Shown: positions 4,775 to 12,567 of the stretch, piece after piece | Numbering within the stretch: the first letter of the stretch is position 1 | Layout of the letters: every line of letters starts with the position of its first letter | IMG/VR virus record: IMGVR_UViG_2850796239_000007 | Coordinates: 1-38,467 of that record | Origin: a virus | Taxonomy: Duplodnaviria > Heunggongvirae > Uroviricota > Caudoviricetes | Reading direction: 5' to 3' (one strand) | Length of the DNA: 38,467 nt | Notes under the pieces: generated by a model | Databases searched by the model: none | What the model was told of the DNA's origin: nothing | Seen by the model: the letters and a program-made list of their open reading frames with translations, nothing else | Position numbers and translations under genes: made by a program

Positions 4775-5323
4775 TTATTTTAAAGAAAGTAATTGTTCCA
4801 CAGTCATATTTTTAATTGCGCCCCGGTTAACAAGAGTCCATCCCTGTTTTTCCAGATAAAACCGGAAAGTCTCCAGGGTACAGACCAGTGCGCCATCAGG
4901 AACGGTTTCGGTGAATTCGACATTGCCGAATTTGTCGAAGTGAACAACCAGAGTGCGACCATCTCCCGGAATCATCTTGTCAGCAGGTGGGGTGTTATTC
5001 TGGCGCAGTTCGGCCTCCATGCGGTCTAACTCAGCAATGTAGGCTTCCTTGAATGCGGCGGCTTTTTTGCCAGTGAAGCCCATCACCAGGAAAACGAAGC
5101 CGTTTTTGGTGATTTGGTACATTGGGAGTTTGCGCCCGGTTGAGTCGGTGTATTCGCTCGCCTCAAAATTGAGGGCAGTAAATTTATCTGAGCATTCAAT
5201 ATTTGCGATGGCACGTAACACATTGTCGTGTCGTTTGTGGAAGAACTCTGCAACCGCAACAGACGTAGTGACAGCGCGACCGTTTTCTACGGTTACACAA
5301 GGGTGAGAAAGGGTAGTAGCCAT
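4775..5323 (-). CDS. Rha-family phage regulatory protein (antirepressor-like)
   Basis: motif AVTTSVAVAEFFHKRHDNVLRAIANIEC typical of Rha domain; start set at ATG 5323 (MATTL) because the promoter of the leader module lies inside the longer track ORF. Confidence 0.75.
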   Translation of the reverse strand: MATTLSHPCVTVENGRAVTTSVAVAEFFHKRHDNVLRAIANIECSDKFTALNFEASEYTDSTGRKLPMYQITKNGFVFLVMGFTGKKAAAFKEAYIAELDRMEAELRQNNTPPADKMIPGDGRTLVVHFDKFGNVEFTETVPDGALVCTLETFRFYLEKQGWTLVNRGAIKNMTVEQLLSLK

Positions 5324-5486
5324 GATGGCAGCCTCCGCGATGAATTTGATTAACTCACCACCGGAGGTAGCAATCTCATGGGTGGTGAGACGTACAGGGT
5401 TGCTACAACCGGTCATCACGGAACCCGGCCAGTCTTGCGACTGCCCCGCACGCCCCACCATAATTTGAATGTGGCTGTGCATTACG
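5324..5486 (-). promoter_or_regulatory. structured 5' leader of Rha gene (GNRA hairpin, target site, RBS-proximal hairpin)
   Basis: paralogous to leaders at 7736..7897 and 11849..12009; hairpin CAGTC-GCAA-GACTG at 5430..5443 (minus). Confidence 0.5.
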
Positions 5487-5556
5487 CATAAAAAAACCGC
5501 CTGAGCGCGGTTATGCGCCGTGAATGACTTCGGGGTAGCAATCCCGGCACCCGTTT
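5487..5556 (-). ncRNA. candidate short terminated RNA (c4/IsrK-like) upstream of Rha gene
   Basis: promoter TTGAAA-17-TATAGT (plus coords 5563..5601), two hairpins, intrinsic terminator AACCGCGCTCAGGCGGTT + U7 (5487..5514). Confidence 0.4.
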
Positions 5557-6012
5557 TATGAGGTGCAGGTGCACTATAATTCCACCCGTTCTGGTTTTCA
5601 ATAGCTACATTCAACATTTTCTCTTTCCTTTCATCACCGAAGTGAACTTTGTTGATGCGGTGCCTGGTGCCTCCAGGTGACGTTAACCAGTTAACAATTA
5701 ACGCCGGAATAAGGGATTTTCCTTACTGTTTTAACTGTTCCGCGTGCGCTGAGCCGCATTCACCGCATCACAAAATTCACTTTAAAAAGGGCGGACATCA
5801 GCCAGCAATTAAACCGATGCCGCCAACTGGTACTTCACACAGCAATGTCGTTATTTACAACCGGAGGCGCACTCCCACCATTTAAATTTAACAGACAAGA
5901 CCGACTCTTTATGGATACCGGAAATGCGCCTTCGTGTTGTGCCCGGTTTTATTTCACCACCTCCGGGCTTTGGTGGTATCTTTACTGAAGTTCTCGCACA
6001 ACCAGTAAGGAA

Positions 6013-6102
6013 ATGAATATGCCAACGTATCTCGCCAGAGTAGAACTATATAATGCTGAGCCAGAGGATTACGAAGGGCTTCATAAATATATGCTCTCAC
6101 TA
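6013..6102 (+). pseudogene. 5' part of small gene interrupted by IS5-family element
   Basis: joins in frame with 7021..7170 when IS and one TA copy are removed (80-aa ORF). Confidence 0.45.
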
Positions 6103-6162
6103 GGCTGTGTCCCTTAATCATCTGAGCTATAGTAACTGTCTGTTTACACAACATATTGAACT

Positions 6163-6612
6163 ATGGCTCGCTACGACCTTCCCGATGAGGCATGGACCAT
6201 CATCAAGCCCCTGTTACCTCCTGAACCCGCCACACCACGGGCCGGACGCCCATGGGCTGAGCACCGTAAAATCATCAATGGCATGTTCTGGGTGTTATGT
6301 TCCGGTGCACCATGGCGCGATTTACCCGAACGATATGGGTCATGGAAAACTGTTTATAACCGCTTTAACCGATGGTCAAAGTCAGGCGTGATTAATATTA
6401 TTTTCAACAGGTTGCTTTCGCTACTTGATGCAAACGGCTTTATTGACTGGTCTGCCACCGCGCTGGATGGCAGTAATATCCGGGCGCTGAAATGTGCCGC
6501 CGGTGCTCAAAAAAACATCCCGATATCGACGGAGATAATGGGCTGGGTCGCTCTCGCGGCGGTTTTGGCACCAAAATCCATCTGGCAACAGACGGAAGTG
6601 GCCTCCCGTTAA
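6163..6612 (+). CDS. IS5-family transposase OrfA
   Basis: 149 aa, MARYDLPDEAWTIIKPLLPP...; contains A AAA AAC slippery heptamer at about 6511..6517. Confidence 0.8.
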   Translation: MARYDLPDEAWTIIKPLLPPEPATPRAGRPWAEHRKIINGMFWVLCSGAPWRDLPERYGSWKTVYNRFNRWSKSGVINIIFNRLLSLLDANGFIDWSATALDGSNIRALKCAAGAQKNIPISTEIMGWVALAAVLAPKSIWQQTEVASR

Positions 6613-10841: not shown

Positions 10842-10898
10842 ATTCTCCTCTCCGGAGGAAGTCGAAAATGTGGCCGCGCAGCTACTGGAGTTTGCGTA

Positions 10899-11189
10899 AT
10901 GGTGGATTTACGTAAAGCGGCGCGGGGGCAGATGTGCACCGTCAGAATTCCTGGCTACTGCAATCACGATCCGGAAACGTCTGTGCTGGCGCATTACCGA
11001 CTGGCGGGAACGTGCGGAACAGCGACAAAACCACACGATATGCAGGCGGCGATTGCCTGTAGCTCATGCCACGATTTAATCGACGGACGGGTAAAAACAA
11101 GCGATTACACCAAAGAAGAATTACGCCTGATGCATGCAGAAGGTGTTTTTCGCACGCAAGAAATCTGGAGAAAGGAAGGTTATTTATGA
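10899..11189 (+). CDS. YbcO-like zinc-binding putative nuclease (DUF1364)
   Basis: 96 aa; Cys/His motifs CTVRIPGYC ... CSSCH; recalled similarity to DLP12 YbcO. Confidence 0.65.
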   Translation: MVDLRKAARGQMCTVRIPGYCNHDPETSVLAHYRLAGTCGTATKPHDMQAAIACSSCHDLIDGRVKTSDYTKEELRLMHAEGVFRTQEIWRKEGYL

Positions 11190-11740
11190 TTTACCCAATA
11201 AATACAGGCAAAAGCGGGGAACACCTTCGTCTCACCACGCTGGAAAGTGTCTGGATTCAGGGAAAACTGCGCATGTGGGGGCGCTGGTCGTATATTGGCG
11301 GCGGTAAGACGGGGAATATGTTCAACCAGTTGTTGGCCTCTAAAAAGCTGACAAAAACGGCAATTAACGAGGCGCTCCGGAGGATGAAAAAAGCAGGTCT
11401 GGACAAACCTGAACTTGAGGCTTTTTTGCGGGATATGATCAACGGCAAGCAAAAAAGCTGGCTGGTGCATTGTACTGATGCAGAGGCGTTATGCATTGAT
11501 CGGGTGATTAGTGAAGTGCTGGCAGAACACCCAAGATTGATTTGTATCCTCCGGCAACGATATGAAGGGAGGGGGATGACTAAGCGAAAAATGGCTGAAT
11601 TGCTGAATGATTCACACCCTGAGTGGTGTTACGCCACGTGCCGTAATCGCATAGATGCGTGGTTGAAAATGGCAGAGTTTATGCTCTATCTGCCGATGCG
11701 TGATGCATTCTCTTCCGGGGATTTAAAAACTGTCTGTTGA
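11186..11740 (+). CDS. putative late antiterminator Q
   Basis: 184 aa from ATG 11186 overlapping ybcO-like stop (ATGA); positioned immediately upstream of a strong promoter plus terminator; assignment by synteny, family not verified. Confidence 0.45.
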   Translation: MIYPINTGKSGEHLRLTTLESVWIQGKLRMWGRWSYIGGGKTGNMFNQLLASKKLTKTAINEALRRMKKAGLDKPELEAFLRDMINGKQKSWLVHCTDAEALCIDRVISEVLAEHPRLICILRQRYEGRGMTKRKMAELLNDSHPEWCYATCRNRIDAWLKMAEFMLYLPMRDAFSSGDLKTVC

Positions 11741-11772
11741 CTCAATCTGTTATCCGGGGCTATATTCCTCAC

Positions 11773-11848
11773 GCGCCAGCAAAATCTGGCGTCGGGATTG
11801 GCGTCCCGGATATCGAAACGGTGCATAACCGCGCTGGCGGTTTTTTTA
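11773..11848 (+). ncRNA. candidate short terminated RNA (c4/IsrK-like) or PR'-tR' late leader RNA
   Basis: promoter TTGACT-18-TATATT (11737..11766) overlapping Q stop; hairpins 11779..11796 and 11793..11808; terminator AACCGCGCTGGCGGTT + U7 (11826..11848). Confidence 0.45.
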
Positions 11849-12009
11849 TGCGCTAAGCACAGTCACATTCGCGATTTATGGTGGGCTGTGTGGGGGAGTT
11901 GAGAGACTCGCCGGATGTTTCGACCGGTTACGCCAACCCTGCACAGTTCACCACCCAGCGATTGGCGTCGCAGGTGGTGAGTTAAAAACCATCGAAACGC
12001 GAGGTCGTT
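11849..12009 (+). promoter_or_regulatory. structured leader of ORF6N gene 2
   Basis: GNRA hairpin GAGTT-GAGA-GACTC 11896..11909; ACGCCAAC 11930..11937; hairpin TCACCACC/GGTGGTGA 11948..11980; SD GAGGT. Confidence 0.5.
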
Positions 12010-12567
12010 ATGACTGTTCAGATTTCTGTCAAAAACCTTTCCCCTGTTACCTATAACCAGATTCCTGTTATTACCACCGAACTTTTGGCGCAGCTTTACG
12101 GCACTGAGCCGGTGCGTATTCGCCAGAATCATCATGAGAACAAAGTACGCTTCGTTGAAGGGAAACACTTTTTCAAAGTTGTTGGTAATGACCTTAAAGA
12201 ATTGCGGGTAGCTTTAAACTACTCACAAAATCCCATCTCTCCCAAAACCCGCTCCCTCATTCTCTGGACAGAACGCGGCGCATCCCGCCACGCAAAAATG
12301 CTCGAAACCGATCAGGCGTGGGATGTGTTCGAAAAACTGGAAGACTGCTATTTCAGTCAAAAGGAGCCGTCAACGCCAGTTTCATGCCAGAAAAGTTACG
12401 ACACGCGAGTTCTCTGTTATCAGCAAGGCGGTGTCACTGTTTCCACAATTCAGTTGCGGGATGATGATATTGTTATTTTCCTTGAGTCATGGCTGGAACT
12501 GGCGAGAGCCAATGGTTGGTTTGTTGTTCGCAGAGATAAACTGGTGGAAAGGCTGATGCAGCTTTAA
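12010..12567 (+). CDS. antirepressor-family protein, ORF6N-type N-terminal domain (paralog 2)
   Basis: 185 aa; N-terminal motif IPVITTELLAQLYGTE...RFVEGKHF; C-terminal GW(F/L)VxxRDxLxxxLMxL motif. Confidence 0.6.
   Translation: MTVQISVKNLSPVTYNQIPVITTELLAQLYGTEPVRIRQNHHENKVRFVEGKHFFKVVGNDLKELRVALNYSQNPISPKTRSLILWTERGASRHAKMLETDQAWDVFEKLEDCYFSQKEPSTPVSCQKSYDTRVLCYQQGGVTVSTIQLRDDDIVIFLESWLELARANGWFVVRRDKLVERLMQL

Follow-up and report, generated by a model that had tools for sequence, protein, structure and literature searches.

Three regulator genes behind isrK and C4 RNA modules share an uncatalogued C-terminal module in a lambdoid prophage

Three genes with two kinds of N-terminal domain

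The DNA analyzed here (the window) is the 38,467-nucleotide virus record IMGVR_UViG_2850796239_000007 of IMG/VR (Caudoviricetes; positions 1 to 38,467), in which a first-pass annotation, made from the letters alone, had pointed out three antirepressor-like genes with different N-terminal domains and a common C-terminal segment, each behind the same RNA module. We analyzed these genes, designated A1, A2 and A3, together with the leaders with which they make up cassettes 1, 2 and 3 (Table 1). The coordinates and the sizes (about 183 amino acids, aa) that had been given for them were right. A1 matched the Rha models of Pfam (Phage_pRha, PF09669; E 5e-31, 107.6 bits, cut-off 29.9) and NCBIfam (TIGR02681; 112.4 bits, cut-off 45.95), whereas A2 and A3 matched Pfam ORF6N (PF10543, cut-off 27.8; E 2.3e-20 and 73.1 bits for A2, E 5.6e-20 and 71.9 bits for A3). 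Since all of these matches exceeded the curated cut-offs, the N-terminal domains do differ, as had been claimed. A direct profile comparison detected no similarity between the Rha and ORF6N domains (P 0.26); two families, phrog_373 and phrog_63, match both. PADLOC matches were confined to the ORF6N domain.

All three open reading frames (ORFs) were intact and 95-99% identical to widespread homologues. The start codons of A1 and A2 are internal ATGs of longer ORFs, of 280 aa (4775..5617) and 226 aa (7766..8446), respectively; GGAGG lies 8 nucleotides (nt) upstream of the A1 start, and a good Shine-Dalgarno sequence precedes that of A2. For Rha- and ORF6N-type architectures that carry the C-terminal module described below, the word antirepressor appears to be an annotation.

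Table 1. Coordinates of the three cassettes and of two further genes of the prophage
Feature	Position	Strand	Details
A1	4775..5323	-	182 aa; Rha N-domain aa 19-103 (5015..5269); C-module ~aa 116-182 (4778..4978)
Cassette 1 promoter	5573..5601	-	TTGAAA-17-TATAGT; consensus scan 10/12
Cassette 1 isrK leader RNA	5490..5566	-	RF01394, 64.8 bits (gathering score 50)
Cassette 1 upstream C4 targets	b1 5542..5534; a1 5528..5514	-	complementarity
Cassette 1 intrinsic terminator	5512..5495	-	terminator scan
Cassette 1 C4 antisense RNA	5378..5465	-	RF01695, 79.0 bits; loop GUUCCGUGAUGA; single-stranded element UGUAGCAA
Cassette 1 downstream C4 targets	5332..5374 (b2 5374..5366; a2 5344..5332)	-	a2 overlaps GGAGG Shine-Dalgarno of A1
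A2	7898..8446	+	182 aa; ORF6N aa 12-98 (7931..8191); C-module ~aa 125-182 (8270..8443)
Cassette 2 promoter	7622..7651	+	TTGACG-18-TATATT; 10/12
Cassette 2 c4-a1b1/isrK leader RNA	7645..7734	+	RF03163, 52.2 bits; RF01394, 75.1 bits (isrK match 7658-7734)
Cassette 2 leader parts	b1 7682..7690; a1 7699..7707; terminator 7713..7730	+	
Cassette 2 C4 antisense RNA	7762..7846	+	RF01695, 77.6 bits; loop UUUCCGUAC; single-stranded element UACGCCAA
Cassette 2 downstream targets	7850..7890 (b2 7850..7858; a2 7881..7890)	+	a2 overlaps GGAG Shine-Dalgarno
A3	12010..12567	+	185 aa; ORF6N aa 12-97 (12043..12300); C-module ~aa 126-185 (12385..12564)
Cassette 3 promoter	11737..11766	+	TTGACT-18-TATATT; 10/12; overlaps last codons of Q
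Cassette 3 c4-a1b1/isrK leader RNA	11760..11847	+	RF03163, 52.9 bits; RF01394, 77.8 bits (isrK match 11773-11847)
Cassette 3 leader parts	b1 11797..11805; a1 11812..11821; terminator 11827..11842	+	
Cassette 3 C4 antisense RNA	11874..11958	+	RF01695, 68.7 bits; loop AUGUUUCGA; single-stranded element UACGCCAA
Cassette 3 leader ORF	11878..11985	+	35 codons; start inside C4
Cassette 3 downstream targets	11961..12000 (b2 11961..11969; a2 11991..12000)	+	a2 abuts GAGG Shine-Dalgarno 12001..12004
Rem-like small antirepressor gene	10039..10326	+	precomputed Pfam PF27490 on identical contig; Rem homologues in phages
Q-type antiterminator gene (DUF1133)	11186..11740	+	PF06576, E 4.2e-106; called in identical public contig (L004); directly upstream of cassette 3

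A shared C-terminal module

The last 60-80 residues of A1-A3 had no Pfam coverage. Of the families that the first-pass annotation had proposed to look for, Rha and ORF6N were matched; ORF6C, ANT/KilAC and also P22_AR_C gave no match in A1-A3 at E values up to 1. The homology that it had suspected among the C-termini was found. Pairwise BLAST, in a search space of one sequence, aligned the C-terminus of A1 with that of A2 (27.5% over 40 aa, E 0.002) and with that of A3 (27.6% over 58 aa, E 5e-4). Shallow profiles made from close homologues related the C-termini weakly (P 0.0015), and an initial search for homologues of the 74-aa C-terminus yielded fragments only. The family phrog_2379, to which A2 (E 3.1e-81) and A3 belong over their full length, matched aa 106-170 of A1 at profile positions 115-180 (E 1.9e-7), and a hidden Markov model (HMM) built without A1-like sequences gave the A1 C-terminus 21.8 bits, compared with at most 10.6 in 5000 shuffles. 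Subfamily profiles matched each other with a probability of 95.7-97.4% (E 1e-8 to 1e-11) in a test that is partly circular, the members having been gathered with a merged profile. Natural hybrids were also found, in which ORF6N is joined to an A1-like module (P0255, P0258) or Rha to an A3-like module (P0267). Judged by sequence, the shared C-terminus of A1-A3, about 60 aa long, is thus a real homology. Recent gene conversion was rejected as its source, as the C-modules are only about 27-37% identical.

We searched 1.84 billion representative proteins with a 60-position profile of the module. Sixty-four proteins matched at E <=1e-3; about 30 of them had a single C-terminal stretch, and the remainder were repetitive proteins. 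The module was found behind Rha, ORF6N, AntA, Bro-N, KilA-N and P22_AR_N domains, in tandem, and as a stand-alone protein of 61-64 aa, while the small families phrog_340, phrog_25059 and phrog_22471 consist of C-terminal pieces alone. Named members came from Salmonella, Cedecea, Pantoea, E. coli and Shigella. When 28 members were compared with Pfam at E values up to 10, only scattered single matches appeared, none of them to ANT/KilAC or P22_AR_C; the Pfam copy used lacked the Rem model, so this comparison is silent on Rem. Newer precomputed Pfam tables, which include Rem and YdaE, have no entry for the module region of the window's own genes. The delineation of this uncatalogued module is new, as is its probable link to Rem described below.

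The AlphaFold2 model of the A1 module (mean pLDDT 88.6, pTM 0.52) consists of a beta-hairpin followed by a 10-residue helix and then two short helices. The full-length model of A3 was unusable (pLDDT 42.9); its secondary structure over the module is similar to that of the A1 model, and the layout common to the modules appears to be beta-hairpin, helix, G-W motif, strand and helix. Neither the solved structures of the PDB nor the predicted viral structures of BFVD contained one resembling the A1 model, and no PDB sequence matched the module. Among 50,697 deposited phage genomes, C-modules of the A1 and A3 types were almost absent.

The only one of these phage records with an A3-type C-module was PP818812.1 (Actinobacillus phage vB_Apl-pPE4), which at 14715-16483 has an 88%-identical copy of the segment from Q to cassette 3; its host assignment looks odd.

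RNA modules upstream of each gene

Each gene lay behind the same RNA module, as had been noticed: a promoter of its own, an isrK RNA with a terminator, and a C4 antisense RNA. All isrK and C4 matches were above the Rfam gathering scores (45 for RF01695), and those to C4 were full-length. The c4-a1b1 family (RF03163) was above gathering for cassettes 2 and 3; in cassette 1 the leader is RF01394 with both complementary boxes. In a scan of positions 4700-12800, the three best sigma-70-like sites were the heads of the three leaders, and intrinsic terminators stood at the 3' ends of all three isrK matches. The three leaders could be aligned over about 300 nt. No LexA box (CTGT-N8-ACAG) occurred anywhere in the window, and the cassettes seem to have constitutive promoters.

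Each C4 folds into the structure of its family and displays a second hairpin loop and a single-stranded 7-8-mer. Both elements have complements in their own isrK leader and just upstream of their own gene, where the target of the loop overlaps or abuts the Shine-Dalgarno sequence in all three cassettes. Duplexes were calculated with the loops only, since unconstrained folding of whole C4 RNAs unfolds the C4 stems and was uninformative. Among the nine combinations of loop and downstream target, the cognate pairs were the strongest; in cassette 1 the cognate downstream duplexes had -16.5 and -8.5 kcal/mol. In nine cassettes, those of the window and of four other loci, the loops fell into five types and the single-stranded elements into four, and the combinations were reassorted. 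Cognate downstream pairing was the best or tied for the best in 8 of the 9, and cassettes sharing a prophage always differed, at least in the loop. Cassette 1 differs from the others of the window in both C4 elements, whereas between cassettes 2 and 3 the loop alone differs and the single-stranded element is the same. These comparisons suggest that cassette 1 is orthogonal and that cassettes 2 and 3 are only partly so. The three cassettes had been called independently regulated; their separate promoters, terminators and C4 RNAs bear this out, but one of the two C4 elements is common to cassettes 2 and 3.

Similarity of the module to Rem

Just upstream of the DUF1367/irsA gene, at the position of gfoA in Gifsy, lies a gene for a small Rem-like protein (Table 1), the fourth antirepressor-type gene in this prophage. 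In published work Rem, which had been identified as remotely related to GfoA, lifted repression by DicA 165-fold (PMC10448788); GfoA binds repressors of the GfoR type, apparently in an A2B2 complex, and is active across prophages (PMC3121763). A Rem family profile was made with five further Rem homologues taken from phage records. When all members were used, hhalign related the C-module to the Rem family with a probability of 82% (P 1.1e-5), and among the subgroups the A3-like one reached 87% and a fourth one 93%. The real alignment scored 30.7, and 200 column-shuffled controls scored at most 16.9. In reciprocal HMM searches, Rem homologues obtained 12-24 bits versus at most 8.9, and module members 11-21 bits versus at most 10.3, for 6000 shuffles. 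The module profile aligned end to end with aa 38-92 of the Rem copy in the window. Intact relatives have HTH_3 repressors of 139 and 161 aa that lack a peptidase domain, and the sequences of these repressors place them in the same class as GfoR-type repressors.

Several results weigh against a Rem-like function of the module. The A1-like subgroup alone reached only 1.9% with Rem, and the Rem alignment spans only the first 45 or so module positions. Neither the C-module (P 0.026) nor Rem (P 0.015) showed significant similarity to the ORF at the putative gfoA position of the Salmonella locus. Prophages with repressors that are only 30% identical can carry almost the same A1 C-module, and therefore the module does not track the cognate repressor. 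Among the Rha and ORF6N proteins with the module, binding or derepression appears to have support for AnrP alone, and this support is indirect. The profile similarity is moderate and not decisive. A C-terminal stretch is nevertheless conserved among the 30%-identical repressors, and cross-reaction between prophages is known for Gifsy antirepressors (PMC3121763). The precomputed Pfam Rem model does not list A1-A3. Considering both sides, we regard homology between the C-module and Rem as probable and the Rem-like protein of the window as probably a stand-alone relative of the module; a Rem-like antirepressor module is the best-supported function suggested by the profiles, not an established one.

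The last 15 residues of the Rem-like protein in the window are unlike those of its 83-86-aa phage homologues.

Prophage setting and relatives

The window is a lambdoid prophage of the Rac/Qin/Gifsy kind that is riddled with insertion sequences (IS) and has lost its immunity region. It adjoins yebY and ryeA/ryeB, its gene layout is the same as in a public 5.16-Mb chromosome across the 20.6 kb compared, and fragmentary homologues carry a Shigella label. Flanks and gene order were collinear with those of an E. coli prophage integrated beside yebY (L001). Between cassettes 1 and 2, L001 has 7.2 kb with the repressor, cro, ydaT, O and P genes that are gone from the window (window 5827-7167 versus L001 13685-20929); a 925-bp IS copy (6100-7024) lies at the junction and goes with the deletion, leaving the neighboring cassettes intact. 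Identical copies of this IS are present at 8659-9583 (inverted) and 27959-28878, and altogether at least seven IS copies or fragments break up the prophage. The copy at 8659-9583, between A2 and hok, is a clean insertion between genes, the flanking sequence being kept whole. An inversion of the segment between the two inverted copies (6100-7024 and 8659-9583) was rejected, as the orientation of cassette 2 relative to Q is that of the IS-free relative.

Within the hok/sok leader, at window 8652-9590, lies the IS copy of 8659-9583, its breakpoints corresponding to L001 22636 and 22650. The sok RNA, found at L001 22532-22705, had no Rfam match in the window, where hok is still present.

Cassettes 1 and 2 occur together in L001, and cassettes 1 and 3 in two other relatives (L002 and L008), while in the window all three slots are filled. 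Cassette 3 is a 935-bp insertion relative to L001. Most of 5426 complete E. coli genomes contained matches to the cassette regions, with a median of 2-3 matching places in each. The viable Shiga toxin (Stx) phage 2851 has three such genes: antA behind isrK and C4, antB behind an sRNA-Xcc1 match, and roi. In our reading the three copies accumulated by mosaicism, one in each of three standard slots: the early-left operon, the nin region and the place downstream of Q. Because relatives vary in which slots they fill and three such genes also occur in a viable Stx phage, the triple cassette as a genome feature is ordinary lambdoid mosaicism. The first-pass annotation had offered two meanings for the multiplicity, accumulated modules from different phages or an expanded decision circuit; the former agrees with this mosaicism, but no circuit is left in cis in this dead prophage, the 7.2-kb repressor, cro and replication region being deleted.

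Proposed mechanism and alternatives

We lean, with no great confidence, toward the explanation that the three cassettes are paralogous RNA-gated cassettes of the P1 immI/Gifsy-1 type, encoding Bro-network proteins with a Rem-like module and present as mosaic copies that act only in trans. A constitutive promoter would produce a leader RNA (isrK/a1b1) ending at a leaky terminator, and read-through past the terminator would produce the C4 antisense RNA and then the message of the regulator gene. The hairpin loop and the single-stranded 7-8-mer of C4 would pair with the two sites just upstream of the gene, one of which covers or abuts the Shine-Dalgarno sequence, so that translation would be kept off. 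Because the isrK leader contains the same two sites, surplus copies of the short isrK RNA would titrate or displace C4, and translation would turn on. It weighs against these steps that the pairing and its effect on translation are deduced from complementarity and by analogy with P1 and Gifsy-1. Once made, the proteins would bind, through the common module, short non-self-cleaving helix-turn-helix repressors of the DicA/RacR/GfoR type, which would derepress early or Q operons. Because the prophage has lost its own repressor region, the three proteins could act only in trans, on other resident or incoming phages. A further-reaching version, which we hold only tentatively and rather doubt, is that the module is an undescribed, independently folding Rem-like antirepressor domain, the repressor-binding part of AnrP-type proteins, so far limited to Enterobacterales and fused to different Bro-network N-domains, each copy being locked by C4/IsrK with a different specificity. 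If it were true, a polylysogen would hold separately keyed, SOS-independent, trans-acting induction switches against DicA/RacR/GfoR-type repressors.

A serious competitor, although an unlikely one in our estimate, is that A1-A3 are DNA-binding transcription regulators in which the Rha or ORF6N (KilA-N-like) domain binds DNA and the C-module serves dimerization or partner docking, unlinked to repressor inactivation. Bro-network N-domains are said to be widely regarded as DNA-binding, a view ascribed to Iyer, Koonin and Aravind in 2002, and the A1 family is publicly annotated as a "Rha family transcriptional regulator". Moreover, the A1 C-module does not co-vary with the resident repressor, its low pTM in isolation is what would be expected of a module depending on a partner or on dimerization, and AnrP was shown only to raise the transcript levels of the antQ operon (PMC4825925). 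The profile link between the C-module and Rem and the stand-alone modules of 61-64 aa, which have no DNA-binding domain at all, argue for the RNA-gated Rem-like cassettes instead, and so does the use by this prophage family of non-cleavable repressors, which need antirepressors (PMC3121763). We consider it improbable that the cassettes are inert relics of a dead prophage, with the shared C-terminus a trace of common ancestry and of no present function in this genome. Such a state would fit the deletion of the immunity and replication region, the number of IS copies and fragments, the splitting of the neighboring hok/sok locus by one of them, and the near absence of A1- and A3-type C-modules from deposited phage genomes, but all three ORFs are intact and close to widespread homologues, promoters, terminators and RNAs all score at full length, the loops and targets are still matched, the IS copy at 8659-9583 lies cleanly between genes, and the one at 6100-7024 spares the adjacent cassettes.

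Another alternative concerns the gene products themselves. The leader ORF is fused in frame to the gene in cassettes 1 and 2, and the true products could be the 280-aa and 226-aa ORFs, "Ash" being a protein domain and the RNA matches secondary. Pfam Phage_ASH (PF10554) matches the window at 5306-5617 (minus strand) and 7766-7897 (plus strand), covering aa 14-104 of the 280-aa ORF (E 2.7e-17) and, weakly, the 226-aa ORF; most public records have "Rha family" proteins of 280-284 aa that include this stretch; and in S. dysenteriae orf45 is fused to anrP (PMC4825925). We nevertheless regard this alternative as very improbable. The "Ash" stretch is exactly the isrK and C4 genes, which exceed the Rfam gathering thresholds; good Shine-Dalgarno sequences precede the internal ATGs; and forms of 184-185 aa are annotated as well. 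The reading frame through C4 differs among the cassettes, and in cassette 3 it is another frame that stops at 11983-11985, 24 nt before the ATG. This lack of a conserved frame makes it probable that translated RNA genes underlie both the Pfam Ash family and the gene starts of the 280-aa Rha proteins, two likely annotation problems.

Comparison with known systems

The system is of a known kind, that of P1 c4-ant, of Gifsy-1 IsrK-AnrP and of domain shuffling in the Bro network. Citron and Schuster reportedly described in 1990 the immI region of P1 and P7, with the c4 antisense RNA, its a1/b1 and a2/b2 targets, icd and ant. The layout of the RNAs in the window is the anatomy of P1 immI: the C4 RNA family, target pairs upstream and downstream with the downstream pair at the ribosome-binding site, and specificity set by a few loop bases with compensating changes in the targets. 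Unlike immI, the window has small Rha and ORF6N proteins with another C-module and no ANT/KilAC, P22_AR_C or ORF6C domain, apparently no conserved icd-like ORF (a leader ORF starts inside C4, in a frame that varies among the cassettes), and as its host element a lambdoid prophage instead of the P1 plasmid prophage.

The "Bro network" of domain-shuffled regulators (KilA-N, Bro-N, Rha, ORF6N, AntA, P22_AR_N and others) is said to have been described by Iyer and colleagues in 2002. The module conforms to it in being one C-module joined to six N-domain families, with natural hybrids, and differs in not being among the Pfam families listed for the network. C4/isrK-type immunity RNAs lie within the gene leaders here, an arrangement also described for P4 and phage-inducible chromosomal islands (PMC10111431).

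Work on Gifsy-1 showed that providing IsrK in trans increases the translation of anrP about 140-fold and that AnrP raises the transcripts of the antQ operon (PMC4825925). The order of Q, isrK with a terminator, a C4-matching segment and a 185-aa ORF6N protein in cassette 3 is that of the isrK-orf45-anrP locus (Hershko-Shalev et al. 2016, PMC4825925). Cassettes 1 and 2 share its RNA anatomy; Q stands directly upstream of cassette 3, as antQ does there, but not next to cassettes 1 and 2. A3 was 89% identical over its full length to a Salmonella protein (P0157) at the AnrP position, in a Q-isrK-C4-ORF6N-isrI context, and by this identity and context is a candidate AnrP orthologue. The window differs from Gifsy-1 as follows: its single prophage has three copies; cassette 1 belongs to the leftward early operon and encodes a Rha rather than an ORF6N N-domain; Rfam detected neither isrI nor isrJ downstream; and the stop of the leader ORFs does not overlap the start codon as AUGA.

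The Rem/GfoA/GftA proteins (PMC10448788, PMC3121763) resemble the present case in that the C-module aligns with aa 38-81 of Rem, a Rem gene occupies the gfoA position in this prophage, and related prophages have short non-cleavable repressors of the targeted class. Rem and GfoA, however, are stand-alone proteins of about 80 aa, whereas the module here is fused to a Bro-network N-domain, appears to be RNA-gated and has an additional C-terminal strand and helix; GfoA is under LexA control, and the window has no LexA box. In the Ant proteins of Stx phages (Phi24B, VT2-Sakai, antA of 2851; PMC3064807) the isrK and C4 leader and the ORF6N-type N-part are the same, with about 88% DNA identity to cassette 3 over 600 nt and several ant-like genes in one phage, but the C-part of the Phi24B protein is like P22 Ant (82% identical over the last 104 residues) and not the C-module found here.

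If the module is Rem-like, P1/P4-type RNA immunity, the Gifsy-1 IsrK-AnrP growth-arrest circuit and the small antirepressors of Gifsy and Qin would form one picture of SOS-independent prophage control, and the role of genes labeled "Rha family" or "ORF6N domain", which are very common in prophages of E. coli, Shigella and Salmonella, could be put to a cheap and concrete test.

Other features of the window

In L001 (21748-21831) and in another locus, L011 (18701-18784), an extra C4-like element that scored as sRNA-Xcc1 (RF02221) lies between C4 and the ORF6N gene; the corresponding stretch of the window is only 58 nt long. An element of the sRNA-Xcc1 type, there unaccompanied by isrK, also lies upstream of antB in phage 2851. 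The small RNA (sRNA) genes SraC/RyeA (463-607) and SdsR/RyeB (2169-2347) lie at the prophage boundary beside yebY. Near the integrase end is the RalA antitoxin sRNA (207 bits), downstream of which an IS3-family element (about 2686-3947) interrupts the sequence. Four tRNA genes (12775-13082, plus strand) follow cassette 3 directly, and an IS110-family element (13784-14980; second copy at 23483-24712) separates them from the lysis genes. Between the lysis and terminase genes, a low-GC stretch (0.39-0.40) contains a gene for a 491-aa TrkH-type potassium transporter (16511-17986, plus strand), which is probably cargo.

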